A stretch of 64,000 nt of DNA from positions 1 to 64,000 of the forward strand of contig DATEGZ010000200.1 in assembly GCA_035279905.1 (NCBI GenBank), given 5' to 3'. The translations under genes were made by a program, and so were the position numbers. The notes beneath the pieces are model-generated. The model was not told the DNA's origin. It did not search any database and was given only the letters and a program-made list of their open reading frames with translations. Positions within the stretch are counted from its first letter, which is position 1. Each line of letters starts with the position of its first letter. Of this stretch, positions 6,043 through 52,471 are shown in pieces. The DNA is from Vicinamibacterales bacterium. GTDB taxonomy: Bacteria > Acidobacteriota > Vicinamibacteria > Vicinamibacterales > SCN-69-37.

Positions 6043-6651
6043 CTAAGCCTCGGAACCCCGCCCCTCGGCAGGCTCGGGGCGCCCTGAGTTCGTCGAAGGG
6101 CGGAACCTCGGAACCACCTTGCGCACGAGGCGAGCGGTGAACCTCACGTAAGCAACGAGTCCGACGAGCGCCGCCCCTCCGAGAATGCCCATGACGGGTC
6201 CAACGAGGACCGCGACCCACGGCGGCACGTCCATCGTGACGTAGGCCGGCAGCCAGTCCGCGGACGCCGCGATGCCCGCCACGAACACCGCAACTCCCGC
6301 CGCGACGAACGAGACGCCGATCGATCCGAGCACGACGATGACGATGAAAGTCGGGATGCTGCCGATCGCGATGAGCCCGGCCAGCGCCAGGAAGCGACGC
6401 AGGCGGTTCATGCCGGGACTGACCGCCGGCGGGCGATTGAGCAGCAGCTCCACGGCGTAGCCGCGCGCGAGATCGTCGGCGGACCCGAGCGACGCGAGTA
6501 CTTTGTCCACCGGCTGACCTGACGACATGGCCTCGGCGATGTGATTGCGGATTTCACCGACGACTTCGGCGCGGTCGGCCGCCGGAAGCGCCTGCAGTCC
6601 GGCGTCGAGCTTGGCGAGGTAGCGTGCGACGAGAGGATGCGTGTCCGTCAT
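6043..6651 (-). CDS. PadR-associated membrane protein (DUF1700-like)
   Basis: ATG at 6651 overlaps the PadR TGA stop (ATGA). 202 aa, with a soluble N-terminus (MTDTHPLVARYLAKLDAGL...) followed by 3-4 transmembrane helices. The remainder of the 558-aa track ORF is an off-frame artefact. Confidence 0.65.
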   Translation of the reverse strand: MTDTHPLVARYLAKLDAGLQALPAADRAEVVGEIRNHIAEAMSSGQPVDKVLASLGSADDLARGYAVELLLNRPPAVSPGMNRLRRFLALAGLIAIGSIPTFIVIVVLGSIGVSFVAAGVAVFVAGIAASADWLPAYVTMDVPPWVAVLVGPVMGILGGAALVGLVAYVRFTARLVRKVVPRFRPSTNSGRPEPAEGRGSEA

Positions 6652-12248: not shown

Positions 12249-12647
12249 ATGCGCGGCATGCCGACGCATCGACCCGTACACGCTTCCAATCTCCCTCGGC
12301 CCGCCGGTCCGTATTCGCCCGGCATGGGTTTCGAACGGCTGGTGTTCGTCTCAGGGCAAGGCGCGACCGATCCGGCGACCGGTCAGCTGGCCGGCCCGGA
12401 CGTCGAGACGCAGACCGAGCAGGTCCTCAAGAACGTGCGCGCGATTCTCGTCGCCGCGGGATCGGACTTGCAGTACGTGCTGCGCTGCGGGGTGTTCCTG
12501 ATCGATATCCGCGAGTTCGAGAAGATGAACGGCGTGTACTCGCGGATGTTCGGCGAACATCGGCCGGCCCGCACGACGGTTCAGGCGGCCGCGCTGCCCG
12601 GCGCGGGCCTGCGCGTCGAGATCGACTGCATCGCCTACGTGCCGTAG
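12249..12647 (+). CDS. ridA: RidA / YjgF / endoribonuclease L-PSP family reactive-intermediate deaminase
   Basis: 132 aa. GPYSPG...LVFVSGQ...TEQVLKNVRAIL...TTVQAAALPGAGLRVEIDCIA, typical of RidA. Confidence 0.75.
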   Translation: MRGMPTHRPVHASNLPRPAGPYSPGMGFERLVFVSGQGATDPATGQLAGPDVETQTEQVLKNVRAILVAAGSDLQYVLRCGVFLIDIREFEKMNGVYSRMFGEHRPARTTVQAAALPGAGLRVEIDCIAYVP

Positions 12648-12740
12648 AAGATGACGCCGGGAGTAGTTTTACGCAAAACGTAAAACCACCCCCGGCGTCC
12701 GAGTAGTTTTACGCTTTGCGTAAAACTACTCCCGGCGTCA
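12648..12740. terminator. AT-rich double hairpin in the convergent gap
   Basis: Nested inverted repeats: CCGGGAGTAGTTTTACGC-AAAA-CGTAAAACCACCCCCGG, then a perfect GAGTAGTTTTACGC-TTT-GCGTAAAACTACTC. About 35% GC in a 70% GC genome. Lies between RidA (+) and the di-heme gene (-). Confidence 0.55.
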
Positions 12741-12743
12741 TTT

Positions 12744-13964
12744 TCACAGCGACGCCAGGAACGTCAGCAACTGCAGTTTTCTGAAGTCCGACAGATTGCG
12801 GTACCGCTGGATCACGTTCGCAGCTTCGCCGGCGTGCCGCAGGATCGCGGCGTTCACCGTCAGCGATTCACCGTCGTGCATGAATCGGTTGTGCGTGCGC
12901 AGGCCCCAGAGCGGCGCCGTGCGCACCTTGTTGCGGGTGTCGTGGTCGCCTTGCTGGATGCCGTCACCTGTGCCGACGTCGTGCATCAGAAAATCCCCGA
13001 ACGGGTGGATGATCTTGTTGCCGAGCGCCGCCGGCACGACGAATGCTCCGCCGGCGAACGACGTGCCGGTCGGCGCCGTCGTGATCGACTTGACGTGGCA
13101 GGTCGCGCAGCCAATCGCGTCGAACACGTCTTCGCCGTCTTGCGCATCGCGAGTGGCCGCGAGCGCGGTGTCACGCGGCGGCGCCTTCGACGCGCGCATG
13201 AACTGCGCGAACAGCGCGACGTCCTCGCCGTTGTCCTCCGGATCGGGAACCGGATCGAACGCGGCGATGGACCGCCCGTTCGACGTGTTCTCGGTCGGCG
13301 CCAGCGGGCTGGTCACGCCCATCTCATTCAGGTACGCGTCGGCCGAAAACGACACCAGGCTGGCGTGCTGGTCCTTCCATCCGAACCGGCCGATGCGCCT
13401 CCGGCCGTTCGACTCCAGCACCGAGACGAGCAGGATGTCGCCCTGCATGCCTGGCGGCTGGTTCTGCGCGATCGCGCGGAGCGTGTTGTCGTCGATGGCC
13501 TCAACGTAGCCGTCGCCGAGCGTGTTGAGCGAGGTCCGGAAACTCCTGGTCTCGTTGCCGGGCAGCAGCTGCTCCATCAGCGCAGCGTTCGTGGTCCGGC
13601 TGTGAATCAACGAGCCTCCAGGATGATCGGTGAACGTGTCCGAGCGCGCGTCGTAGTGCCCGGCGCGCAGCTCGGTGATCTGGCTGGTGGCGCCGCTGAC
13701 GGGGTTCTGGTGACACTCGGCACAGGATTGTGCGTTGTACATCGGGCCCAGACCGTCGCCAGTGCCCTCCCGCTCTTCGAACGTCGCTCGCGCGAGGTCG
13801 AATTGGGCCTGAGTCACCATGCCGTTGCTCAGGTTGTCGAATCCCGCGAGCGCTTCGGTCGGGGCGTTACTGTGGAATTGCTGCTGGCCTTCCGTGCTGG
13901 CGACGGCGAGAGCAAGACACGATGCCGATAGATACACTACGAGCGTAGTTCTTGGTGCCTTCAT
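12744..13964 (-). CDS. Di-heme oxidoreductase / putative peroxidase (DUF1111 family)
   Basis: Two CxxCH motifs (CAECH, CATCH). PLWGLRTHNRFMHDGESLT resembles the CCP-like distal heme region. Signal peptide present. Confidence 0.7.
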   Translation of the reverse strand: MKAPRTTLVVYLSASCLALAVASTEGQQQFHSNAPTEALAGFDNLSNGMVTQAQFDLARATFEEREGTGDGLGPMYNAQSCAECHQNPVSGATSQITELRAGHYDARSDTFTDHPGGSLIHSRTTNAALMEQLLPGNETRSFRTSLNTLGDGYVEAIDDNTLRAIAQNQPPGMQGDILLVSVLESNGRRRIGRFGWKDQHASLVSFSADAYLNEMGVTSPLAPTENTSNGRSIAAFDPVPDPEDNGEDVALFAQFMRASKAPPRDTALAATRDAQDGEDVFDAIGCATCHVKSITTAPTGTSFAGGAFVVPAALGNKIIHPFGDFLMHDVGTGDGIQQGDHDTRNKVRTAPLWGLRTHNRFMHDGESLTVNAAILRHAGEAANVIQRYRNLSDFRKLQLLTFLASL

Positions 13965-18025: not shown

Positions 18026-18151
<126 letters not shown>

Positions 18152-29681: not shown

Positions 29682-31309
29682 GCACGCCGACCTGCGCCGC
29701 AGTGCTGGCCCGCACGCTGCGTGAGGCCGGCATCACGCGGATGTTCGGACTGCCGGGCGGTGAAGTGCTCGACTTCATCGACGCCGCCCGGCGCGAAGGC
29801 ATCGACTTTCTCCTCACGCGCCACGAAGCCGGCGCGGCGTTCATGGCCGACGTCACCGGGCAAATCCAGCGGCGCCCGGGTGTCTGCGTCGCGACGCTCG
29901 GACCCGGCGCGATGAACATGGCGCTCGGCGTCGCCAACGCGTATCTCGATCGCTCGCCCGTGATCGCGATCACGGCGACGCTCGCCCGCGCCAACAGCCG
30001 CATCGCCACGCACCAGGATCTCGATCTGAACGCGGTGTACCGCCCGTTCACCAAGCTCGCGCTGACGCTCGACGGGCACGACACGGCCGCGAAGGTGCGG
30101 CACGCGATCGCGGTCAGCCTCGAGCCGCGCATGGGCCCGGTGCACATCGCCGTGCCGAGTGACGTCGCGCGAACGCCGGACGCCGACACGCCGGCCGCAC
30201 CGATCGCGGAACGATCCTTCACGCCCGCGCCGCCCGCGGATCTCGATCGCGTCGCCACCGAGATCGCGCGCGCTCGCCGGCCCGTTGTCGTGCTCGGCAT
30301 CGACGTCAACCCGCACGCGGAGGCGCGCGCGGTGCGTGCGTTCGTCGACGCGCTGGGCGCGCCGGTATTCGTCACGCCCAAGGCCAAGGGCCTCGTGTCC
30401 GAGGACCACCCGCTGTTCTACGGCGTCTGCGCCGGCGTGTCCGCGGACGCCGTCGTCGTGGACTGGCTCGGCCGCGCGGATCTGCTCATCGGCGTTGGAT
30501 TCGACCCGGTGGAGTCCGACAAGGTGTGGCATCACACGATGCCGATGGTCTCCGTCGGCCCGGTGTCGATCGCGAAAGACGATTTCCGCCCACGTGCTGA
30601 AGCCGTTGGAGATCTGAGCACCGCGCTCGCCGTGCTGGCGACGCGGCTGGGCGCGCGGGCGATCGAATGGACCGCCGGCGATCGCGCGACGTTCAGGCGC
30701 GAGCTCGAAGCCGTGCTGCGGCCCACCGCCGTGCCGCGCGGGCTCTCGGGATACGAGCTGACGCGCCGGCTGCGCGAGTCGTTTCCGCGCGACACCATCT
30801 TCGTCACCGACGTCGGCTCAGTGAAGATGGTCACGTCGCAGGCCTGGACGTCGTACGAGCCGCAGACGTTCTTCGAATCCAACGGCCTGTCGGCGATGAG
30901 CTACAGCCTGCCGGCGGCGATGGCCGCGCGACTGCAGTACCCCAAGCGGCCGATTCTCTGCACCATTGGCGACGGCGGGTTCGGCATGACGATCGCCGAG
31001 ATCGAAACCTGCGTGCGCGAGCGCCTGCACTTCACAACGGTCGTTTACAACGACAGCAGCCTGAGCCTGATCGACGCCGCGCAGCAGCGCCGCGGCTACC
31101 CGACCACGGGCGTCCGCCACAGCCAGGTGGACTTCGCCGCGGCCGCCGCGGCTTTCGGCGCGTGGTCGCGCCGGGTCGAGACGATGGAACAACTGGACGC
31201 GGCCCTCGGGCAGTCGGCCGGCATCGACCGGCCGGTCGTGATCGACGCGGTCGTGGATCCGGCGGAGTATAGGGCGCAGACAGGGCCGCGGGGAAAACTT
31301 AAAACTTAG
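29678..31309 (+). CDS. Thiamine-pyrophosphate enzyme of the acetolactate synthase large-subunit family
   Basis: TPP-binding motif GDGGFGMT...NDSSL. N-terminal Pyr domain (GLPGGEVLDFIDA). The last four codons and the TAG stop are encoded inside the family-1 repeat element. Confidence 0.75.
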   Translation: MSTPTCAAVLARTLREAGITRMFGLPGGEVLDFIDAARREGIDFLLTRHEAGAAFMADVTGQIQRRPGVCVATLGPGAMNMALGVANAYLDRSPVIAITATLARANSRIATHQDLDLNAVYRPFTKLALTLDGHDTAAKVRHAIAVSLEPRMGPVHIAVPSDVARTPDADTPAAPIAERSFTPAPPADLDRVATEIARARRPVVVLGIDVNPHAEARAVRAFVDALGAPVFVTPKAKGLVSEDHPLFYGVCAGVSADAVVVDWLGRADLLIGVGFDPVESDKVWHHTMPMVSVGPVSIAKDDFRPRAEAVGDLSTALAVLATRLGARAIEWTAGDRATFRRELEAVLRPTAVPRGLSGYELTRRLRESFPRDTIFVTDVGSVKMVTSQAWTSYEPQTFFESNGLSAMSYSLPAAMAARLQYPKRPILCTIGDGGFGMTIAEIETCVRERLHFTTVVYNDSSLSLIDAAQQRRGYPTTGVRHSQVDFAAAAAAFGAWSRRVETMEQLDAALGQSAGIDRPVVIDAVVDPAEYRAQTGPRGKLKT

Positions 31310-31388
31310 AACTCAAAACTTAGAACTTCAGAGGATCACGCGGTCATTCCGAAGTTCTAAGTTTGAAGTTCTAAGTTCTAAGTTGATC
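31296..31388. repeat. Family-1 tandem-heptamer hairpin element, copy B
   Basis: AACTTAAAACTTAGAACTCAAAACTTAGAACTTCAGAG - loop GGATCACGCGGTCATTCC - GAAGTTCTAAGTTTGAAGTTCTAAGTTCTAAGTTGATC. Spans exactly from inside the stop of the TPP enzyme gene to 3 nt before the stop of the ABC exporter gene. Confidence 0.85.
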
Positions 31389-33221: not shown

Positions 33222-33275
33222 TAGTGAATCCTTGTGGTTCCGGGGTTCCGGGGTTCCGGGGTTCCGAGGTGCGCT
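33222..33275. repeat. Family-2 GGTTCCGG-array element, one-armed copy
   Basis: GTGAATCCTTGTGGTTCCGGGGTTCCGGGGTTCCGGGGTTCCGAGGTGCGCTGGCGGCG. Homologous to the left arm and loop-proximal part of the copies at 38162 and 49462. No complementary right arm. Confidence 0.7.
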
Positions 33276-33360
33276 GGCGGCGTTTCACCGACCCGCCGTG
33301 TCGCTTCACCGATTCGAGGGATATCCGCGGCCAGTCATCGCGTATCAACGACAGAGACGC

Positions 33361-36370: not shown

Positions 36371-37426
36371 TTGTCCGATCGCCCACCAGCACGCCTGTGG
36401 TGGCGCGGGCCGCTGCTCTGGACGGGCGGCGTGCTCCTCTACGCGCTCGTGCTCACGGTCCAGGTCGGACTGCCGCTGTCGATCTCGTTGCCATCGGCCG
36501 CGATCTACCTCTACTCGCTTGCGATCATCTCGATCCCGGTACGGATGTGGATGCAGCGGTCGCTGTCGCGCGGCCGGCCCACGGCGTCACAGCTCACGTG
36601 GTACGTGCTCGCGGGCTTCGCGACCGTCGGCCTCTGGTTCTGGGCCAACATGCTCTGGAACCGCTACACGATCGGGCCGGCGTATTGGTCGCTCGTCTAC
36701 GCCGGCAACTGGATCTTCCAGCTGCTGTTCGCGGTCACCGTCTACGGCACGGTCGTCGGCTTGCAGCTGACCGCGCAAGCCTGGCGGCGCGAGCGCGAGC
36801 GCGATCGCCGCGAAGCGGAGCTGATGTTGGTCGCGCGTGACGCCGAACTGGGCGCCATCCGCGCGCAGTTCCAGCCGCACTTCGTGCTCAACGCGCTCAA
36901 CTCGCTCCTGGCGCTCATCGACAAGGACCCGGCGCTCGCGCGCACGATGGTCGTCCGGCTGGCGGACGTGATGAAGTCGGTGTTCGATCGCATGGACGTG
37001 CCCGCCGTGCCGCTCGAGCGCGAGCTCGACCTCGTCAAGGCGTACCTCGACGTCGAACGCATCCGCTTCGGCGCGCGGCTCAGCGCCGCGTTCGAGATCG
37101 ACGATGCCGCGCGCGGCGTGCTCGTGCCGCCGTTTCTGCTGCAGCCGATCGTCGAGAACGCGGTGAAGCACGGCATCGCGCCGAGCGCGGCGCCGGGCAC
37201 GGTGCGCGTGAGCGCAAAGGTGCGCGACGGACGACTCGATCTCGAAGTCCGCGACTCCGGCACCGGCGCGGCATCCGCGCCAGGCTCGGGCCGCGGTCTG
37301 GCGCTGACCCGCCGGCGTCTCGAGACCGTTTATCAAAACGCGTACGAGCTGACGTTCGACCGGCAGCCGACCGGCACGTCCGTGCGCATCAGCATGCCGG
37401 CGGACGCGGCCCTCCATGTCGCGTGA
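36371..37426 (+). CDS. LytS/YehU-type sensor histidine kinase (5TM sensor, His_kinase PF06580, HATPase)
   Basis: N-terminal transmembrane helices. H-box QFQPHFVLNALNSLLALI. The HATPase region includes VENAVKHG. The start is uncertain (TTG near 36371; GTG at 36287 is also possible). Confidence 0.7.
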   Translation: MSDRPPARLWWRGPLLWTGGVLLYALVLTVQVGLPLSISLPSAAIYLYSLAIISIPVRMWMQRSLSRGRPTASQLTWYVLAGFATVGLWFWANMLWNRYTIGPAYWSLVYAGNWIFQLLFAVTVYGTVVGLQLTAQAWRRERERDRREAELMLVARDAELGAIRAQFQPHFVLNALNSLLALIDKDPALARTMVVRLADVMKSVFDRMDVPAVPLERELDLVKAYLDVERIRFGARLSAAFEIDDAARGVLVPPFLLQPIVENAVKHGIAPSAAPGTVRVSAKVRDGRLDLEVRDSGTGAASAPGSGRGLALTRRRLETVYQNAYELTFDRQPTGTSVRISMPADAALHVA

Positions 37427-38171
37427 GGTCCTGCGGCTGCTCATCGCGGACGACGAGCCGCTGGCGCGCGACCTGGCGCGGCGATACGCGTCCAGCCAGC
37501 CCGATGTCGAGGTCGTCTCGGAGTGCGCGTCGGGCGACGAGCTCGCGCGCGCGCTGCCGGAAGTCCGGCCGGACGTCGTGCTGCTCGACATCCGGATGCC
37601 CGGCGCGGACGTCTTCACCGTGCTCGAGCGCGAATCCGCGCGGCCCGATCGGCTGCCCGCCGTGATCTTCGCGACGGCCTACGACAGCTACGCCGTCCGC
37701 GCGTTCGATCTGAACGCTGTCGACTACCTCGTCAAGCCGTACAGCGCGGATCGATTTGCCGAAGGGCTGCGCCGCGCGCGATCGCGCCAGGGATCCGAGC
37801 GCGCCGCCGACGGCCTCGCGCGCGTGATCCGCGACCTCGGCCCGCGCCCGGATCGCCTGCTCGTCCCCGACGGCCGCAAGATGGTCGCGATCGCGATCGA
37901 CGACATTATCTGGATCAAGGCGGAAGACGACTACGCGCGCATCCACACCGCCACGCGCAGCTACCTGATCAGCCGGACGCTGAAAGATCTCGAAGGGCGG
38001 CTGGATCCGGATCGCTTCGTGCGCTTACATCGATCGGCGCTCGTGCAAGCGTCGCACATTCGGGAAGTGACGGCTGAGGGCGGGAGCCGGTACCGGGTGC
38101 GGCTCAGTGATGGGACGAACGTGCTCGTGAGCCGAACGCGCGCACCTGAGCTTCGGCGGTGGATGATCTAG
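37416..38171 (+). CDS. LytTR-family response regulator
   Basis: Receiver domain (LIADDEP...VLLDIRMPG). C-terminal LytTR DNA-binding domain. Overlaps the kinase stop by 11 nt. Confidence 0.85.
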   Translation: MSREVLRLLIADDEPLARDLARRYASSQPDVEVVSECASGDELARALPEVRPDVVLLDIRMPGADVFTVLERESARPDRLPAVIFATAYDSYAVRAFDLNAVDYLVKPYSADRFAEGLRRARSRQGSERAADGLARVIRDLGPRPDRLLVPDGRKMVAIAIDDIIWIKAEDDYARIHTATRSYLISRTLKDLEGRLDPDRFVRLHRSALVQASHIREVTAEGGSRYRVRLSDGTNVLVSRTRAPELRRWMI

Positions 38172-38305
38172 TGATCCTTGTGGTTCCGGGGTTCCGGGGT
38201 TCCGGGGTTCCGAGGTTCCGGGGTTCGCTGGCCACGACAGCGGTCTGCAAGACGTGATCACGATCGGCAGAACCCCGGAACCGCGGAACCTCGGAACCCC
38301 GGAAC
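38162..38305. repeat. Family-2 GGTTCCGG-array hairpin element, full copy
   Basis: Left arm GTGGTTCCGGGGTTCCGGGGTTCCGGGGTTCCGAGGTTCCGGGGTTCGCTGG. Loop contains GACGTGATCACGATCGG. Right arm CAGAACCCCGGAACCGCGGAACCTCGGAACCCCGGAACC. Lies between the LytTR stop (38171) and the VWA stop (38306). Confidence 0.85.
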
Positions 38306-40252
38306 CTACTGTGTCTTTCGAATGGTGGCCGTCACAGTGCCCGTAACGTTCCCCGCTTCGACGACGGACGCACGAATCAAGTACGTCCCCGCCTGCAGAT
38401 CGTCCACAGGCAGCTCCGCGATCGCCTGGCGCGTGGTACCGACGAGCTCGGGCGTGATCTCGCGCTCGATCAGCGTGGTCTCGCTGCCCGGAGCCGTCAG
38501 CGTAAAGCGTACGACCGCCTCCGGCGGGTTCGCGGTGTCGGGATAGAGCTCCAGCGACGCACCGATCGTTGTCGCGCCGTCGGGCACCCGCTCGAGCGCG
38601 AGGAACCGTGGCTGCCGGTCCGCGCCCGCCCACATCGTGAACAGATCGCTCACCGAGAACGATCCGAAGTGCGCGAGACCGGCCGTGAGGCCGTGCTCGA
38701 CGCTGCCGATGTTGCCTTTGCCGTCCGCAACGACGAACCGCAGGCGGTACTTGCCGGTCTCGATCGGCACGGGAAACGCGAGCAGGTAGTCTTCCCCGGG
38801 ACTTGGCACCGGCACGTCACGGCGTCCCGCCTGCTTGATCTCGCCCGCCTCGTTGACGAGCCCGTACATCGCGATGAGCGGCCCCTGCACGCTCGACGGC
38901 ACCTGGACGTTGACGCCAAGCTGCAGCCCACTGCTGTTCGGATCGTGCCGCTGCGCGGTGCCGAGCGCGATCGGCACGCCAAACGCGACGCCGCCCTGCG
39001 CGAGCGTGGTCTTCAGCTGCTCGGCGATCGGCACGGCCTCGGGCGCGACCGAGGCCATCAGCGCCTCGCGGTTCACGCGCACCGTCGTGCCGGACGTCTT
39101 CACGGACACCTTCGTCGCCAAATACCGGCGCTTGTCCGTGACCACGGGCGCCTCGACGCCGAGGCGATAGAACCCGGACGTCTCCGCCTCGATGCGCTTG
39201 AAGAAGCGATCCGCCTGTCCCACGACGAGAAACGCCGTGCCGCCAGCGTTTTCGGCCACGGTCTGCGCGCCGGAATTCAGAAACCGGCCTTCGCTCACAC
39301 GCGCGTCCCTCCGCGCGAACCCGGTGTCGCGCATGTCGATGTCCTCGGGGATCTCGCTGAGCGCGTAAAACTGCACGCCATTCTCCGCCGCGGCGCGGCC
39401 GAGCGGCGCGAGCTGGCGCTGCAAGTCCAGCTCGGTGCCGATCGCGACGCCGGCCGACATCGCGATCACGATCTTCGGTGCCGGCGCCAGCTTGAGGAGT
39501 CTCATCAGCTGCTGAACAGCCGCGAGCTGCATCGCCGTGGTGTGCGTCACCTGCTGCGCGTACGCGCGCCCAGCCGCTTCGACGATCGGCGTGCACTGAT
39601 CGACGGGCAGACTGAGCTCAGGACACTCCCGCGCCGCGACCATGCCGAGCGTCTCGCGCGGCAGGCCGCGGTCGATGTCGATGGCCTCCGGCACCGAGAT
39701 GTAGAACGGCGCCGTGATGTTGTCGTTGCGCCCGATCATCTTCTTGTCGTGCAGCGCCGCAAGGACCGCCGCGCGATCGCGCGTTGGATTCACCGTCGGG
39801 CCCAGCCCGCTCGTCGTCGTGATGCCGATGAGATCGTCCACGTCGAAGCTGTCGAGCATGCGCTCGGCGGCGACGAGCAACGCCTTGCCTGGGCCCGGCT
39901 TGTACGACAAATCGTCGAAGAGCAGCACGACGACGCGGCCGCCGCGACGCGCAGGCGCGGCCTGCCCCGGCTGGTTCGTCGTCTGGCGCGCCTCAGCCGT
40001 CGATCCGGCCGCGCTGCCGAACTCGAGAAAGTCGAGCGCGCGCACCGGCCGCGCCTGCTTCTCGAGCGTGACGACGAAGTCCTCGGGCTTGAGCCCACGG
40101 ACGGGCTTGCCGTCCTTGTCCACGACGGTGACGTCGAGCGTCACGAGCTCGACGCCGCCGCGGAAGACGGGCTGAGGTGTCTGCTGCGCTCGAGGCGCCG
40201 CGACGAACACGGCGAGCGTGGCAATCAAGATCGCGCGGCGCATTGGGGCCAT
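38306..40252 (-). CDS. VWA-domain secreted protein (Acidobacterial VWFA-related domain family), paralog 1
   Basis: Signal peptide. The FRGGVELVTLDVTVVDKDGKPVRGLKPEDF N-terminal block is typical of the Acidobacterial VWFA-related domain. VWA fold (VVLLFDDLS...). Confidence 0.75.
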   Translation of the reverse strand: MAPMRRAILIATLAVFVAAPRAQQTPQPVFRGGVELVTLDVTVVDKDGKPVRGLKPEDFVVTLEKQARPVRALDFLEFGSAAGSTAEARQTTNQPGQAAPARRGGRVVVLLFDDLSYKPGPGKALLVAAERMLDSFDVDDLIGITTTSGLGPTVNPTRDRAAVLAALHDKKMIGRNDNITAPFYISVPEAIDIDRGLPRETLGMVAARECPELSLPVDQCTPIVEAAGRAYAQQVTHTTAMQLAAVQQLMRLLKLAPAPKIVIAMSAGVAIGTELDLQRQLAPLGRAAAENGVQFYALSEIPEDIDMRDTGFARRDARVSEGRFLNSGAQTVAENAGGTAFLVVGQADRFFKRIEAETSGFYRLGVEAPVVTDKRRYLATKVSVKTSGTTVRVNREALMASVAPEAVPIAEQLKTTLAQGGVAFGVPIALGTAQRHDPNSSGLQLGVNVQVPSSVQGPLIAMYGLVNEAGEIKQAGRRDVPVPSPGEDYLLAFPVPIETGKYRLRFVVADGKGNIGSVEHGLTAGLAHFGSFSVSDLFTMWAGADRQPRFLALERVPDGATTIGASLELYPDTANPPEAVVRFTLTAPGSETTLIEREITPELVGTTRQAIAELPVDDLQAGTYLIRASVVEAGNVTGTVTATIRKTQ

Positions 40253-40262
40253 GTTATTGGTT

Positions 40263-40287
40263 CCGAGGTTCCCCGGAACCCTTATTG
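40263..40287. repeat. Family-2 mini hairpin between the tandem VWA genes
   Basis: GGTTCCGAGGTTCCCCGGAACC. Confidence 0.5.
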
Positions 40288-42228
40288 TCCTTTTCTGATC
40301 GTCGACGTCACGGTGCCCGTCACAGTCCCCGCCTCCACGACCGCCGCATGAATCACGTACGCCCCGGGCTGCAGATCGTCCACCGGCAGCTCGGCGATCG
40401 CCTGGCGCGTGGCGCCGACGAGCTCGGGTGTGATCTCGCGCTCGATGAGCGCGGTCTCGCTGCCCAGAGCGGTCAGCGTGAAGCGCACGACCACCTCCGG
40501 CGGGTTCGCGGCGTCGGGATAGAGCTCGAGCGACGCGCCGACGGTCGCCGCGCCTTCAGGCAGGCGCTCGAGCGCGAGGAACCGTGGCTGGCGATCCGCG
40601 CCGGCCCACATCGTGAACAAGTCGCTCACGGAGAACGATCCGAAATGCGCGAGGCCCGCCGTGACGCCGTGTTCGACGCTGCCGATGTTGCCTTTGGCGT
40701 CGGCGATGACGAAGCGCACGCGGTATCTTCCGGATTCGATCGGCACCGGAAACGCGAGCAGGTAGTCTTCTCCGGGATTTGGCACCGGCACGTCGCGGCG
40801 TCCAGCCTGTTTGATCTCGCCCGCCTCGTTGACGAGGCCGTACATCGCGATGAGCGGCCCCGGCACGCTCGACGGCACCTGGACGTTCACGCCAAGCTGC
40901 AGCGCGCTGCTCGAGGGATCGCGGCGCTGCGCCGTCCCGAGCGCGATCGGCACGCCAAACGCGACGCCGCCCTGCGCCAGCGTCGTCTTCAATTGCTCGG
41001 CAATCGGCACGGCCTCGGGCGCGACCGCGGCCAGGAGCGCCTCACGATTCACGCGCACCGTCGCGCCCGACGTCTTGACCGACACTTTCGTCGCGAGATA
41101 CCGGTGCTTGTCGGTCAACACCGGCGCCTCGACGCCGAGACGATAGAACCCTGACGTCTCCGCTTCGATGCGCTTGAAAAATCGATCGGCCTGTCCAACG
41201 ACAAGAAACGCGGTACCGCCGGCGTTTTCCGCGACCGTCTGCGCGCCGGAGTTCAAGAACCGGCCTTCCTGGACCCGCGCGGCCGCGCGCGCCTGCGTCC
41301 GTTCGGATAAGTCAACGAGATCCGGAAGCTCGCTCATCGCGTAGAACTGCACGCCATTTTCCGCCGCCGCGCGCCCGAGCGGCGCGAGCTGGCGCTGCAG
41401 GTCGAGCTCCGTGCCGATCGCGACGCCGGCAGAAAGCGCGATGATGACCTTCGGTGCCGGCGCGTTCTTGATCAGCCCCATGAGCGTCTGAAACGCCGCG
41501 AGCTGCATCGCCGTGCTGTGCGTGATCTGCTGCGCGTACGCACGTCCGGCCGCGGCCACCATGTACTTGCAGACGTCGACTTGAATACCCAACTCTCCAC
41601 ACTCGCGGCCGGCAACTGCGTCCAGCGTCTCGCGCGGGAAGTCGCGGTCGATCTCGATGGCCTCGTCCACCGCGATGTAGAACGGCGCCGTGATGTTGTC
41701 GTTGCGCCCGATCATCTTCTTGTCGTGCAGCGCCGCGAGGACCGCGGCGCGATCGCGCGTCGGATTGACCGTCGGGCCCAGCCCGCTCGTCGTGGTGATC
41801 CCGATCAAGTCGTCCACGTCGAAGGTGCCGATCATCCGCTCGGCCGCGACCAGCAAACCCTTGCCCGTGATCCCCGGCTTGTAGGACAGATCGTCGAAGA
41901 GGATGACGATGGCGCGTCCGCCGCGGCGGGCGGGCTGCGCCTGACCGGCTTGATTCGTCGTTTGACGCGCGTCGGCGGTCGATCCGGCCGCGCTCCCGAA
42001 CTCGAGGAAATCGAGCGCGCGCACCGGCCGCGGCTGCTTCTCGAGCGTAACGACGAAATCCTCGGGCTTGAGGCCGCGGACGGGCTTGCCGTCCTTGTCG
42101 ATCACCGTGACGTCCAGCGTGACGAGATCGACGCCGCCGCGGAACACGGGCTGTTGAGGAGTCTGCTGCGCCGCGAGCGCCGCGGCGAAGACGAGCAGCG
42201 CCGTCGAGGTCAAAGCCGGGCGGCGCAT
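40282..42228 (-). CDS. VWA-domain secreted protein, paralog 2 (tandem duplicate)
   Basis: 648 aa, same length as paralog 1. Roughly 85% identical overall and near-identical in the C-terminal 200 aa. Confidence 0.75.
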   Translation of the reverse strand: MRRPALTSTALLVFAAALAAQQTPQQPVFRGGVDLVTLDVTVIDKDGKPVRGLKPEDFVVTLEKQPRPVRALDFLEFGSAAGSTADARQTTNQAGQAQPARRGGRAIVILFDDLSYKPGITGKGLLVAAERMIGTFDVDDLIGITTTSGLGPTVNPTRDRAAVLAALHDKKMIGRNDNITAPFYIAVDEAIEIDRDFPRETLDAVAGRECGELGIQVDVCKYMVAAAGRAYAQQITHSTAMQLAAFQTLMGLIKNAPAPKVIIALSAGVAIGTELDLQRQLAPLGRAAAENGVQFYAMSELPDLVDLSERTQARAAARVQEGRFLNSGAQTVAENAGGTAFLVVGQADRFFKRIEAETSGFYRLGVEAPVLTDKHRYLATKVSVKTSGATVRVNREALLAAVAPEAVPIAEQLKTTLAQGGVAFGVPIALGTAQRRDPSSSALQLGVNVQVPSSVPGPLIAMYGLVNEAGEIKQAGRRDVPVPNPGEDYLLAFPVPIESGRYRVRFVIADAKGNIGSVEHGVTAGLAHFGSFSVSDLFTMWAGADRQPRFLALERLPEGAATVGASLELYPDAANPPEVVVRFTLTALGSETALIEREITPELVGATRQAIAELPVDDLQPGAYVIHAAVVEAGTVTGTVTSTIRKGQ

Positions 42229-44748: not shown

Positions 44749-44755
44749 CGACACC

Positions 44756-44802
44756 GATCAGGCACCAGGCACCAGGCACTAGCACTTGATCGGTGCGATT
44801 TC
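44756..44802. terminator. Hairpin with a GGCACCA repeat loop
   Basis: CACCGATCA-(GGCACCAGGCACCAGGCACTAGCACT)-TGATCGGTG, between the anti-sigma gene and the DUF4139 gene. Confidence 0.4.
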
Positions 44803-46307: not shown

Positions 46308-46413
46308 GGATTAACTTAAAACTTAGAACTAAGAACTTAGAACTTCGGAGTACACACGCGTCACGCGTGACGCTCTGAAGTTCTAAGTTTGAAGTTCTAA
46401 GTTCTAAGTTGAT
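46308..46413. repeat. Family-1 tandem-heptamer hairpin element, copy C
   Basis: GATTAACTTAAAACTTAGAACTAAGAACTTAGAACTTCGGAG - loop TACACACGCGTCACGCGTGACGCTCT - GAAGTTCTAAGTTTGAAGTTCTAAGTTCTAAGTTGATC. The right arm is identical to copy B. Confidence 0.85.
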
Positions 46414-46467
46414 CCCGGCCCCTAACCTCCCGGCAGGCCAATACGTCTAAGCTCGACGTATCGACCT

Positions 46468-46824: not shown

Positions 46825-49463
46825 TCGCGCGCCTGCTGGCGGGAGTCGCGCGGCCGCTCCACCGCGGCCTGCTTCGCCTCGCGCCGCCCGACGTGCGCGC
46901 GCAGTACCGCGCCGAAATGGGCCGGACGTTCGACGCGATGCTCGACGTCGCGTCGTGTCACGGCAGCTGGGCGGTGCTCGCGCTGCTCATCCGCGAATTC
47001 ATCGACATCCTGCACGCGCGGCGGTCGCCCGCCGCGGCGGAGGCGCTCATGTCATCTCACACCGATCCGGAACCCCGTGTGTGGCGCGCCGCGCGCCTGG
47101 CTCAGGCCACGCGGTCGCTCTTCCGCCGGCCGGCATTCACCGCCACGGCGCTCTTCGCCCTCGCCGCCGGCACGGCCGCGACGACGACGGTGTTTGCGAT
47201 TGTGGATACGGTCGTGATCAAGGCGCTGCCGTATCCGGACGCCGATCGACTCGTCAACGTGCAGGAAGCGAGCCCGGCCGCGAATGCGCGCGTGAGCCTG
47301 GTCGGGCCGGCGCGGCTCGAAGACTGGCAGCGCATGACCCGAAGTTTCGAGGCGGTGTCCGGGTACTACAGCGAGGCCGTGACCGACACGAGCGTCGCCC
47401 AACCCGAGCGGCTCGACGGCCGCCGCGTGGCGCCGCGCTTCTTCACCGTCTTCGGGACAAATCCAGTCGTCGGCCGGACGTTCACGGACGCGGAAGAGCA
47501 CTTCGGCGGACCGCTCGCGGCGGTGGTGAGCGAGCAATTCTGGGCGCGCCGTTTTCAGCGCAATCCACAGGTCATCGGCCGCGCGTTGATGATCGGCGGC
47601 CAGGCGTTTCCGATCGTCGGCGTCATGCCGGCCGCCTTCACGAGCAGCGTCGACGTCTGGCTGCCCGCGCAGTTCGCGCCGGGTCTGCTCGCGTTCCGCG
47701 AGTCCCGATTTCTCTCGGGCATCGGCCGGATGAAACCGGGCGTCACGCTCGAGCAGGCACACGACGATCTTGATCGCGTGCAGCGCGAGCTCGGCGCGCA
47801 GTTTCCGAAGACGGATGCCGGCTGGTCGGTCACGCTCTGGGACATGAAGGCGTTCCGGCTCGGCGACCGCAGCCGCGGGCTCTGGCTGGTCTTCGGTGCG
47901 GTCGGCCTGCTCTGGCTGATCGCGATGACGAACGTCGCAGGGCTGGTGCTGGTCGAGACGCACCGGCGCGCGCGCGAGCTCGCTATTCGTCTGGCGATCG
48001 GTGCATCGCGCGGACACATCGTCGGCGTCGTCGTGCAGGAGGTGCTGGTCGTCGCGATGCTCGGCAGCGCGCTGGGCACGGTCGTCTCGATCTGGCTCGT
48101 CGGCGTCGTCAAATCACTGTTCACGACGCTGCCGCGCGTGTCGGAGCTCGCGATCGACTGGCGGGCCGCCGCGTTTGCCGCGATCACGGGCATCGTCGCG
48201 GCAGGCGTGTGCGGGCTGGTGCCGGCGCTCGTCGCGACCCGTCATCGGCCGGCGTCGCTCGTGGCGAGCGGCGGAAGAGTCGTTGCGGGCGGTGCGCATC
48301 GGTGGCAGCGAGGGCTCGTCGCTGCGCAAGTAGCGCTCAGCTTGCTGTTGTCGGCGTCGGCGGCGCTGCTGCTGCGCAGCTATTACAACCTCACGCACGT
48401 GGATCCGGGGTTCGCGACAGAGGGCACCGTCACGTTTCACGTCGGCGCGCGGTGGGACGAGGACCGCACGCGCGTCGGACAACTGCAAGCGTCGCTGCTC
48501 GAGTCGCTCGGCCGGATGCCGGGCGTGCAGGCCGCCGGGTTCGTCAACTTTCTGCCGGCGACGGGAGGCACGCTGCGATTCAGCGTGCGCGTCGAAGGCC
48601 TCGCGGGGACCGATGCCAACGGGACAATGCAGACCGGCCAACGAACGATTAGCCCCGATTACCTTCGCGCGCTGGGCGTGCCGCTCGTCACGGGCCAGTG
48701 GTGTCGGCCGATCTCGACGGACATGAACCAGCGAACGGGCGTTCTCGTCAGCCGATCGTTCGTCGAGAAGTTCGCGCAGGGCCAGAACCTCATCGGGCGC
48801 GAGCTGACGTTCCCGGAGTTCCGAACGCCGAACACGATCGTCGGCGTCGTGGAGGACATGGCGGAAGATGGGCCGCAAGCGGCGCGCGCGCCGTATGTCT
48901 ACACGTGCCTGGCCGCGGGTTCGTGGCCGGACCCGAACTACGTCGTGCGCACGAACGACGTCGCGGGATTCATCGCCAACCTCGCGCCGGCGGTGCATCA
49001 ACTTGATCCGTCTCGCGCGATCTTCGGCGTGCGTCCGCTCGGCGACGTCCTGCACGACGCGGTCGAAGCGCCGCGGCTCAATGCGGGCATGATCGGCGTG
49101 TTCGCCGGCGGCGCATTGTTGCTCGCGGCGGTCGGGCTGTACGGATTGTTCACGCTGCTCGTGTCGGAATCGCGGCGCGAAATCGGCGTCCGGCTGGCGC
49201 TCGGCGCCGCGCCACGGCAGGTCGTGCAGCTCGTCTTCGCCGATGCCGGACGGCTGCTGGGCATCGGCATCGTGGCGGGCCTCGCGCTCGCGATCCTGGG
49301 CAATCGCACGCTCGGCAGCATGCTCTTCGACGTCGGGCCGCTCGATCCGATGACGCTCGTCACCGCGACGCTGACGCTTGCCGCGGTCGCCGCGTGCGCG
49401 ATCGCGATTCCGGCGATTCGGGCCGCGCACGTCCCGCCAACTGAAGCATTACGTACGGAGTGA
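46821..49463 (+). CDS. ADOP-type duplicated FtsX/MacB permease (Acidobacterial duplicated orphan permease)
   Basis: ATGA overlap with PadR. 880 aa with two MacB-like periplasmic domain plus FtsX four-transmembrane-helix modules. An N-terminal permease-prefix helix. PadR-ADOP is a standard pairing in Acidobacteria. Confidence 0.8.
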   Translation: MIARLLAGVARPLHRGLLRLAPPDVRAQYRAEMGRTFDAMLDVASCHGSWAVLALLIREFIDILHARRSPAAAEALMSSHTDPEPRVWRAARLAQATRSLFRRPAFTATALFALAAGTAATTTVFAIVDTVVIKALPYPDADRLVNVQEASPAANARVSLVGPARLEDWQRMTRSFEAVSGYYSEAVTDTSVAQPERLDGRRVAPRFFTVFGTNPVVGRTFTDAEEHFGGPLAAVVSEQFWARRFQRNPQVIGRALMIGGQAFPIVGVMPAAFTSSVDVWLPAQFAPGLLAFRESRFLSGIGRMKPGVTLEQAHDDLDRVQRELGAQFPKTDAGWSVTLWDMKAFRLGDRSRGLWLVFGAVGLLWLIAMTNVAGLVLVETHRRARELAIRLAIGASRGHIVGVVVQEVLVVAMLGSALGTVVSIWLVGVVKSLFTTLPRVSELAIDWRAAAFAAITGIVAAGVCGLVPALVATRHRPASLVASGGRVVAGGAHRWQRGLVAAQVALSLLLSASAALLLRSYYNLTHVDPGFATEGTVTFHVGARWDEDRTRVGQLQASLLESLGRMPGVQAAGFVNFLPATGGTLRFSVRVEGLAGTDANGTMQTGQRTISPDYLRALGVPLVTGQWCRPISTDMNQRTGVLVSRSFVEKFAQGQNLIGRELTFPEFRTPNTIVGVVEDMAEDGPQAARAPYVYTCLAAGSWPDPNYVVRTNDVAGFIANLAPAVHQLDPSRAIFGVRPLGDVLHDAVEAPRLNAGMIGVFAGGALLLAAVGLYGLFTLLVSESRREIGVRLALGAAPRQVVQLVFADAGRLLGIGIVAGLALAILGNRTLGSMLFDVGPLDPMTLVTATLTLAAVAACAIAIPAIRAAHVPPTEALRTE

Positions 49464-49543
49464 GTGTGGTTCCGGGGTTCCGCGGTTCACTGGCACCGTC
49501 ACGCGAACCCCGGAACCTCGGAACCCCGGAACCCCGGAACCAC
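49462..49543. repeat. Family-2 GGTTCCGG-array hairpin element, copy 2
   Basis: GAGTGTGGTTCCGGGGTTCCGCGGTTCACTGG - loop CACCGTCACGCG - AACCCCGGAACCTCGGAACCCCGGAACCCCGGAACCACC. Immediately after the ADOP stop. Confidence 0.8.
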
Positions 49544-51377: not shown

Positions 51378-51384
51378 GGCACGG

Positions 51385-51545
51385 GTTCTTCAGGTACGAC
51401 CGGTACGTCAGGTACTCGGAACGCACTGGCGCTGGCCAACTTATTTGGTTTTTCTAAAGAAGCGGACTGAGATGCAGGTTCCTCGTACCCGACGTACCGG
51501 TCGTACCTCTCGTACCTGTCGAACCCTGCCCTGTCCGGAAACGCC
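51385..51545. repeat. Family-4 GGTACGNC-array hairpin with a long AT-rich loop
   Basis: Arm CAGGTACGACCGGTACGTCAGGTACTCGGAAC pairs with GGTTCCTCGTACCCGACGTACCGGTCGTACCTCTCGTACCTGTCGAACC. The loop is about 55 nt and contains TTATTTGGTTTTTCTAAAGAAG. Confidence 0.7.
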
Positions 51546-52322: not shown

Positions 52323-52470
52323 TGGGGGCACTGGGTCATTGGGTCATTGGGTCATTGAGCTATTGGGTTATTGAGGGTGAACGCTCGCATCCAGACCGGG
52401 CGTTTCGCTCCCAGGACGCGGCCCCAATAGCCCAATGACTCAATGGCCCAATGGCCCGATGGCCCAACGG
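52323..52470. repeat. Family-3 GGGTCATT-array hairpin element
   Basis: Arm CACTGGGTCATTGGGTCATTGGGTCATTGAGCTATTGGGTTATTGAGGG. Complementary arm CCCCAATAGCCCAATGACTCAATGGCCCAATGGCCCGATGGCCCAACGG. Fills the convergent gap from 52319 to 52472. Confidence 0.8.
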
Positions 52471-52471
52471 C

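Follow-up and report, generated by a model that had tools for sequence, protein, structure and literature searches.

Dispersed tandem-array hairpins next to stop codons in a Vicinamibacterales genome

Introduction

A stretch of 64,000 nucleotides from a Vicinamibacterales bacterium (GenBank assembly GCA_035279905.1, contig DATEGZ010000200.1, positions 1–64,000; hereafter, the window) carries, between the stop codons of a LytTR response regulator gene and a convergent gene for a 648-residue protein, a long hairpin with arms composed of tandem arrays of the 8-nt unit GGTTCCGG in inverted orientation; related arrays lie elsewhere in the window. The locus raises the question of whether such hairpins are copies of one dispersed element or independent products of repeat slippage, and of what keeps them at the ends of genes. 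On balance, we consider it probable that they are REP/STRR-like dispersed extragenic palindromes of Vicinamibacterales, which spread by copying, are remodelled by slippage, and persist at gene 3′ ends in the role of terminators or stabilisers. The Acidobacteriota rank among the most abundant bacteria of soil, yet hardly anything has been described of their gene-end signals and repeat biology; a literature search on the unit sequences and on such hairpins in Acidobacteria found no paper.

Structure of the copies

Arrays of GGTTCCGN form two full hairpins (copies A and B), one one-armed copy (copy C), a mini hairpin, and degenerate remnants, giving a density of 4–5 copies per 64 kb. With at most one mismatch, GGTTCCGNGGTTCC has 20 matches in the window (0.12 expected from shuffles), and Tandem Repeats Finder (TRF) reports 8-nt arrays at 33236–33270, 38182–38226/38270–38306, and 49468–49488/49505–49541. 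Outside the arrays, GGTTCC and GGAACC occur 8 and 11 times (10.5 and 8.3 expected, respectively). An initial annotation of the window, made from its letters alone, had described the contents of all five places correctly; its coordinates needed the small corrections that are given below in parentheses.

Copy A (38172–38306; previously 38162–38305) starts at the base following the TAG stop (38169–38171) of the LytTR gene (37416–38171, plus strand). It opens with the non-repeat leader TGATCCTTGT (38172–38181, plus strand), which begins with an in-frame TGA and is common to copy C and to L215, an independent copy located after rpsA in another metagenome. The left arm (38182–38227) consists of five GGTTCCGR units, the eighth bases of which are G, G, G, A, and G, followed by GGTTCG. 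It is separated by a GC-rich loop (38228–38260) containing GCTGGCC and the palindrome CGTGATCACG from the right arm, (CCGGAACC)n (38261–38306), which was detected by both TRF and the inverted-arm search. The two 46-nt arms are 85% complementary, and the predicted fold has a free energy of −97.3 kcal/mol (z-score, −7.8). The final C of the right arm is at the same time the first base of the CTA (TAG on the minus strand) stop (38306–38308) of the minus-strand 648-residue gene (38306–40252).

Copy B (49464–49543; previously from 49462) begins directly 3′ of the TGA stop (49461–49463) of a MacB/FtsX (ADOP-type) permease gene. Its left and right arms occupy 49466–49488 and 49505–49543, with 23-nt inverted segments (49466–49488 and 49521–49543) that are 96% complementary (−50.9 kcal/mol; z-score, −3.6). 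Copy C, correctly described as a half-copy (33228–33281, plus strand, as delimited against relatives, with boundaries ambiguous by 1–3 nt; previously 33222–33275), is a one-armed 54-nt insertion in the spacer between divergent ABC and TonB-like receptor genes, and is composed of the leader AATCCTTGT, four units, and GGTGCGCTGGCGG; its structure is unremarkable (z-score, +0.8). The mini hairpin GGGTTCCGGGGAACCTCGGAACC (40259–40283, minus strand; previously 40263–40287) lies between the tandem paralogs of the 648-residue protein and folds on the minus strand with −15.4 kcal/mol (z-score, −3.5). The degenerate remnants (6049–6118; previously about 6050–6115) include CTCGGAACCCCG and CGGAACCTCGGAACCACC, the latter resembling the right end of copy B. 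Translation of the arms yields the recurring pseudo-peptide LWFRGSGVPGFRGSGV, as had been noted.

Pfam confirms the LytTR, MacB/FtsX (ADOP-type), ABC, TonB-like receptor, GT39, PPK2, and YajQ (Pfam DUF520) assignments. The 648-residue paralogs had no Pfam match, and the label ‘VWA’ given to them in the initial annotation was not verified. These paralogs (38306–40252 and 40282–42228) stand in tandem with ~85% nucleotide identity and are represented by a single copy in the syntenic relative L241; the duplication (38297–40218 and 40271–42200) takes in the last CCCCGGAACC unit of the right arm of the hairpin.

Homology among the copies

Copies A and C and the L215 copy align over TGA(A)TCCTTGT and then over units having G, G, G, and A as their eighth bases. 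The claim that the copies are homologous elements, not independent slippage products, is borne out by this agreement in leader and order of unit variants; as an alternative between homology and slippage, it has to be softened, in that the elements are dispersed and homologous while in-situ slippage and concerted evolution are also substantial. The left flank said to be shared by the copies is indeed common to A and C; B shares only TGT, and the TAGTG part is host sequence at locus C. A related leader, TGACGCTTGT, occupies the same place in L062, another Vicinamibacterales metagenome-assembled genome (MAG). Copy B is probably an inverted copy relative to A with a diverged leader, because its right arm, once reverse-complemented, is the left arm of A less one unit (GTGGTTCCGG GGTTCCGG GGTTCCGA GGTTCCGG GGTTCGC).

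Two copies in L215, 2.7 kb apart, have the same inner arm and loop. In the MAG MFD02979.bin.2.72, at least six loci carry a common irregular arm, in which three or four 8-mers are followed by one 6-mer (GGTTCC), two 8-mers, GGTTCG, and then 7-mers (GGTTCGR); the irregular pattern is mirrored in the right arm, and the loops are unrelated. Independent slippage, as judged from these arms, could not produce such common irregularities, and the comparisons show homology among copies from separate loci and from separate organisms. At the left junctions in the window, TAGTG precedes ATCCTTGT at locus A and is also found 5′ of copy C, and at the right edge the junction GGAACC/TACT recurs in five genomes. 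The flank logos of 15 full copies contain no GTAG or CGTC tag. A metagenome scan with the leader ATCCTTGTGGTTCCGG, a 16-mer that is too short for that collection, gave one real copy among the loci retrieved from the matches listed (120 stretches).

Orthologous sites in relatives

The site of copy C is the uninterrupted ATGAT(A/C)GTGCGGTTCACCGACC in L119, L120, and L112, the LytTR proteins of which are ~89–90% identical to that of the window. The initial annotation had suggested a search for insertion polymorphism among relatives, and it is found here: compared with the three relatives, which lack copy C, the window has 54 extra bases, with a repeated flank of at most 1 nt. Because the uninterrupted sites of the three relatives carry the sequence without the insertion, TAGTG is recognised as host sequence that pre-exists at locus C. 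Its presence at both A and C may reflect either target preference, as in IS200/IS605-type elements, or template-switch microhomology from A, 5 kb away. Copy A is flanked by TA on both sides, both from native stop codons. The sites compared thus indicate that copies are gained as clean insertions without target-site duplication.

At site A, where the window has the GGTTCCGG hairpin, L119 and L120 have a 19-nt spacer, and L118 (94%) and L241 have an unrelated ATCGAT-rich element. This ATCGAT/GCAATCG-rich element (L118:2255–2433 and L241:469–571) fills the convergent spacer between the LytTR and 648-residue genes in the two closest relatives, and its fold is not significant (z-score, −1.1). The LytTR orthologs in L112, L115, and L116 (72–90% identity) have a different downstream synteny and afford no empty-site comparison for A. 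At site B, the GGTTCCGG hairpin of the window is replaced in L241, L242, and L243 by a perfect palindrome, AATGACGCCGGGAGTAGTTTTACG... (−53 kcal/mol). The family of this palindrome (L241:9912–9990, L242:1579–1640, and L243:1509–1565) is also represented in the window at 12647–12745, where a non-array perfect palindrome, ATGACGCCGGGAGTAGTTTTACG...CGTAAAACTACTCCCGGCGTCAT (−71 kcal/mol; z-score, −13.5), fills a convergent junction.

Similar replacements are seen for array hairpins built from other units. The AACTTAG hairpin at 31294–31388 (F1b), between convergent genes, faces an empty site in L119; the upstream gene stops at a TAG within the array. For the AACTTAG hairpin at 46308–46415, L241 has an orthologous hairpin with the same GGATC...GATC ends, in which every unit is AAGTTCG/CGAACTT; of the 39 pairs compared between the two hairpins, 8 are changed on both sides and none is broken. 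The (TGGGTCAT)5 hairpin of 8-mers at 52332–52471, between convergent genes, corresponds to a (GGAGTCC/GCGGTCC)3 hairpin in relatives, and the 145-nt array hairpin of CAGGTACGA 9-mers at 51381–51525, after the stop of a GT39 glycosyltransferase gene, corresponds to a small plain hairpin. The arms evidently stay complementary as their units change in concert. The strong hairpins that relatives carry at the sites of window hairpins have free energies of −53 and −54 kcal/mol (z-scores, −12.5 and −6.5, respectively), and a hairpin of some sequence appears to be required at these gene-end positions.

Location relative to genes

All eight array hairpins of the window, including those of the sister families, start within 13 nt after a stop codon, in line with the proposal that copies may be enriched downstream of stops. 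Several of them overlap the stop codon by one base or contain it, and in L215 the TGA of the leader is itself the stop codon of rpsA. Between co-directional genes, the hairpin lies against the upstream stop and is separated by 50–80 nt from the next start, and, within the window, a hairpin of one kind or another occupies each convergent junction that has a spacer. For 46 array hairpins in all fetched loci, a crude gene call placed 16 between convergent, 15 between tandem, and 4 between divergent genes. Hairpins followed by a T-run were not enriched (8 against 9.6 expected in a consensus scan of 20 kb), and the mini hairpin was the sole element matched.

In four loci from Acidobacteriota MAGs (L045:6812–6849, L094:7505–7542, L025:5938–5983, and L085:4209–4247), one-armed GGTTCC arrays abut the starts of minus-strand genes, with CCGGAACC repeats placed where the ribosome-binding site would be.

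Authenticity and distribution

An independent ENA contig of 53,950 nt matches the window with 99.995% identity across 20.7 kb, a span that takes in copy A, and homologous hairpins lie within Mb-scale contigs of long-read MFD MAGs. The Logan contig L002 (SRR5195129) ends inside the left arm of copy A, at position 38203 of the window; the arrays thus fragment short-read assemblies, and many short metagenome contigs of the lineage probably end at such elements. The closest named LytTR homolog (90% identity) belongs to a MAG designated ‘Vicinamibacterales bacterium’.

In a distribution scan over one genome per species, runs of three or more units turned up in at least 109 stretches, at least 44 of them, among the matches listed, from Acidobacteriota. 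The architecture of a plus array followed by a minus array was present in 21 loci, all from Acidobacteriota, and in none of 65 loci from other phyla, again among the matches listed. Two contigs of MFD02979 alone carry arrays at nine or more loci, and arms in the MAGs reach ~100 nt. A TRF-based detector applied to the same MAGs revealed the same architecture with AAATGTT, GAGTGCT, GAATGAA, ACACGGAG, AACTAAC, GACGGGTAAC, and other units, six of which were folded with z-scores from −5.8 to −11.1. Viral contigs gave five short arrays, none in hairpin form and with no link to phage; one of the arrays observed in a putative viral contig (L248:206–260; IMG/VR contig 3300011438_000025) is a one-armed GGTTCCGGGGTTCCGCGGTTCCGCGGTTCACGG, located after a TAG and similar to the left arm of copy B. 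Inverted short-unit arrays were also flagged outside Acidobacteriota in a Chloroflexales MAG (L012:1634–1709) and in Haloferula sargassicola NBRC 104335 (L017:4581–5123), the latter case being no neat hairpin but an asymmetric, duplicated region in which (CCAAGCA)n and (CCACGGA)n runs occur.

Sister families and their loops

The AACTTAG family, which the initial annotation called family 1 and rightly considered to have the same architecture as the GGTTCCGG hairpins, has a further member at 18026–18151, with GATC ends, between convergent genes (TRF and inverted arms). The full GGTTCCGG hairpins have stems of 23–46 bp and loops of 16–43 nt. AACTTAG hairpins, including those at L112:17285–17396 and L241:6751–6862, have GGATC...GATCC ends and the leader TAGGCA(G/C)(C)GG after the upstream stop, and their 7-nt unit gives a stop in every frame within three units. 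At 31294–31309, a gene for a thiamine pyrophosphate (TPP)-dependent enzyme runs into the array, its product ending in ...GPRGKLKT* as compared with ...RPA* in L119. The families at 51381–51525 and 52332–52471 sit after consecutive genes. A hairpin at 44749–44800 has the stem CACCGATC/GATCGGTG and (AGGCACC)3 in its loop; in L241 (2525–2689), the AGGCACC unit builds the two arms of an array hairpin of 165 nt that follows the stop of YajQ (DUF520), a site at which the window has only 3 nt.

The loop word TCACGCG occurs four times in the loops of the window (0.14 expected), and the hexamer TCACGC/GCGTGA is weakly enriched across 48 loops (10 against 3.3 expected), both comparisons being post hoc. 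TCACGCG and CGTGATCACG are also found in a ACACGGAG-unit hairpin of another genome, with weak significance and likewise post hoc. The word (G)ATCACGCG or CGTGATCACG recurs across unit families and genomes, and in one ‘empty’ spacer; its sites are 18076–18101, 31329–31349, 46346–46377, 38227–38269, and 49489–49504 in the window, and L101:4530–4580 and L119:1088–1116 elsewhere. Two loops resemble the plain spacer of relatives, namely those with GATCACGC (F1b site) and GGCGCTGG (F3 site).

Possible origin and role

In the reading that we favour, a copy of the dispersed palindrome consists of an optional 10-nt leader (TGAYCCTTGT), a GGTTCCGR run, a variable GC-rich loop, and an inverted run. A copy, or a single arm, may reach a new site through replicative template switching at a microhomology (TAGTG, at the left junction of A and C) or, by another route, through a hairpin-recognising single-strand (HUH/Y1-type) transposase acting in trans. 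Slippage would then lengthen or shorten the arms, with fold-back template switching or selection keeping them complementary; the stem may well tolerate the gain or loss of whole units because either arm pairs in several registers. Persistence at 3′ ends would follow if, in the transcript, the hairpin makes RNA polymerase pause or terminate and/or stops 3′ exonucleases, and between convergent genes one hairpin would serve both directions.

Several points weigh against this reading. We infer the terminator or stabiliser role from position, and the main weakness of the terminator part is the absent U-tract: none follows either strand of A or B, and, to our knowledge, hairpins that lack one have not been established as intrinsic terminators. 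Some arrays with a single arm lie in promoter regions or beside starts, which means that copies cannot all serve as 3′ hairpins. At site A, L119 has a weak hairpin of 4–8 bp and L241 none that is significant. With regard to copying, a regular-expression search in six frames of the 1.75 Mb of fetched loci found no open reading frame (ORF) with an HUH...Y motif beside the arrays, neither common element ends nor target duplication was found across the 15 full copies, and the conserved arms with unrelated loops in MFD02979 fit poorly to simple whole-element transposition.

A selfish, non-autonomous transposon (MITE/REPIN-like; MITE, miniature inverted-repeat transposable element) that is mobilised in trans and has no host function, and that is seen after stop codons only because selection purges its insertions elsewhere, would account for the presence/absence polymorphism among relatives at ~90% protein identity and for the lack of target duplication together with the identical TAGTG 5′ of A and C, as in IS200/IS605-type insertion. 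It is known that the termini of REPs can provide neighbouring ORFs with TAG stops (PMC3733652), and in Acidobacteria there are HUH-Y1 genes of class 3, with which ~600 hairpins are associated in Solibacter (PMC6006769). We nevertheless hold this explanation to be unlikely, given that no transposase was found near any copy in the fetched loci, and in view of the absence of the class 3 REP motif from the window, the non-conserved loops of MFD02979, the compensatory changes that maintain complementarity, and the different hairpins of relatives at the very same sites, which suggest that the site needs a hairpin. Origin in situ would instead have each hairpin grow from an ordinary terminator hairpin by slippage and fold-back, the likeness among loci being due to convergence or ectopic gene conversion. 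Several observations would be expected of such growth: an array hairpin is retained at orthologous sites although every unit differs (AACTTAG against AAGTTCG; TGGGTCAT against GGAGTCC), one architecture is common to dozens of unrelated units in Acidobacteriota loci, a small hairpin of ordinary type is often present within the loop, two loops resemble the plain spacer of relatives, and arrays take up exactly the space between one stop and the other. It is difficult to reconcile with copy C, a one-step 54-nt insertion bearing the leader and variant order of A, with the same leader after rpsA in another organism, and with the irregular compound arm signature at six or more loci of one genome; moreover, neither AACTTAG nor GGTTCC is over-represented in sequence beyond the arrays, leaving no bias to drive convergence. 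We regard origin in situ as a fairly improbable account of the hairpins as a whole.

A dedicated copying process in Acidobacteriota, of a kind as yet unknown, would set a single arm 3′ of TAGTG or of a stop and make the second arm by fold-back template switching round the local spacer. Such a one-arm-first process would lead to conserved arms with locus-specific loops, to spacer-like loops, and to spacers overwritten from stop to stop; we put it forward only tentatively, as a rather doubtful possibility. If true, it would represent a bacterial counterpart of foldback elements, providing interchangeable, self-renewing terminator cassettes. That the arrays bind protein at the DNA level (a nucleoid protein, gyrase, or a GGTTCC-recognising regulator), with the hairpin potential incidental, would suit the one-armed arrays in promoter regions and beside start codons and the conserved arms with variable loops of MFD02979, and gyrase and IHF binding has been reported for REP/BIME elements (PMC3733652). 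This idea is very unlikely, given that many unrelated units adopt the same inverted architecture, that the compensatory arm changes are relevant to pairing rather than to recognition of one fixed site, that GGTTCC is not enriched outside the arrays, and, by our own reasoning, that the 8-nt period is off the helical repeat. Finally, an artefact of short-read metagenome assemblers at repeats is effectively refuted: such repeats do break assemblies, as seen for the one Logan contig ending in the left arm, but the identical element stands mid-contig in the independent 54-kb ENA assembly, homologous hairpins lie inside Mb-scale long-read MAG contigs, and the flanking genes are intact on both sides.

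The lineage would have its gene 3′ ends served by long, microsatellite-like array hairpins of many unit families, which are swapped between close relatives and change in concert, with compensation between the arms. If these are terminators or stabilisers without a U-tract, they would constitute a natural test, in a high-GC phylum, of the action of a hairpin alone on RNA polymerase or exonucleases, and they may offer a clean system for how slippage and fold-back copying shape palindromes. For annotation, the arrays create spurious ORFs and altered C-termini, which can be misleading.

Comparison with known systems

Membership in REP, MITE, intrinsic terminators, Rfam, or the class 3 REPtron hairpins fails in each case on at least one defining feature. 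Rfam gave no hits at the gathering score over the whole window; at E ≤ 1, only eukaryotic miRNA-precursor models were matched, far below their cut-offs, as a generic long hairpin would be. Intrinsic terminators, including bidirectional ones, are likewise GC-rich hairpins positioned right after stops and common to convergent genes; however, they have a stem of ~5–14 bp and a U-tract, in contrast to the stems of 23–46 bp without a U-tract found here. The DNA uptake sequences (DUS) of Neisseria and uptake signal sequences (USS) of Haemophilus are short genome-specific motifs that occur as inverted pairs after genes. Over-representation of this kind was rejected, as uptake sequences are enriched genome-wide including inside genes, whereas GGTTCC/GGAACC is not enriched outside the arrays. 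Integron attC sites and a CRISPR reading were rejected on anatomical grounds, namely genes in both orientations, involvement of core housekeeping genes, no R′/R″ core, and no spacers.

Foldback (FB) and Galileo elements have long inverted arms of tandem short units, with the unit type changing from outside inward. They are eukaryotic, of kilobase scale, and have known transposase partners, and the analogy is one of architecture only; the terminal inverted repeats (TIRs) of Galileo are internally repetitive and FB-like (PMC3573991). MITEs such as Correia/NEMIS, ERIC, and Nezha resemble the present elements in being short non-coding insertions with inverted ends, in their presence/absence between strains, and in that they may act in transcripts. 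They differ in that target-site duplication is absent at copy C and the inverted ‘ends’ make up the whole, internally repetitive element. In the fetched loci, no parent insertion sequence with matching ends was found, and no inverted array pair encloses an ORF. The class 3 HUH-Y1 ‘REPtron’ hairpin, whose motif was taken from Table S1 of PMC6006769, was rejected because its CnGA foot with a GCCGCGACCGTNAGGGAGCG-type hairpin is missing from the window at ≤3 mismatches.

In behaviour, the closest systems are REP, REPIN, and BIME elements, which are, as here, multi-copy, genome-specific extragenic palindromes at 3′ ends with turnover between relatives; REP sequences occur as singlets and inverted doublets, and roles in termination and mRNA stabilisation have been proposed for them. 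REPs are imperfect palindromes of 20–40 nt that bear a GTAG or CGTC tag at the 5′ side and have a cognate REP-associated tyrosine transposase (RAYT), whereas the elements described here have tandem-array arms of 23–100 nt made of a unit that is itself non-palindromic, and lack the tag; no RAYT was found beside the arrays in the fetched loci. In architecture, the closest are the STRR hairpins of filamentous cyanobacteria, intergenic arrays of 7-bp units in which inverted runs pair, examples being found between hupS and hupL and upstream of hoxW; they have no known function, the proposals being stability, coupling, or termination (PMC2670836). Both are tandem short-unit intergenic arrays able to fold. 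Compared by description, STRR sequences are cyanobacterial heptamers (STRR1–3, in heterocystous species), whereas the present arrays are of the 8-nt GGTTCCGG in Vicinamibacterales, with unrelated units. Relative to STRR, the hairpins of this lineage are distinguished by insertion polymorphism, shared leaders, abutment to stop codons, and the coexistence of many unit families.

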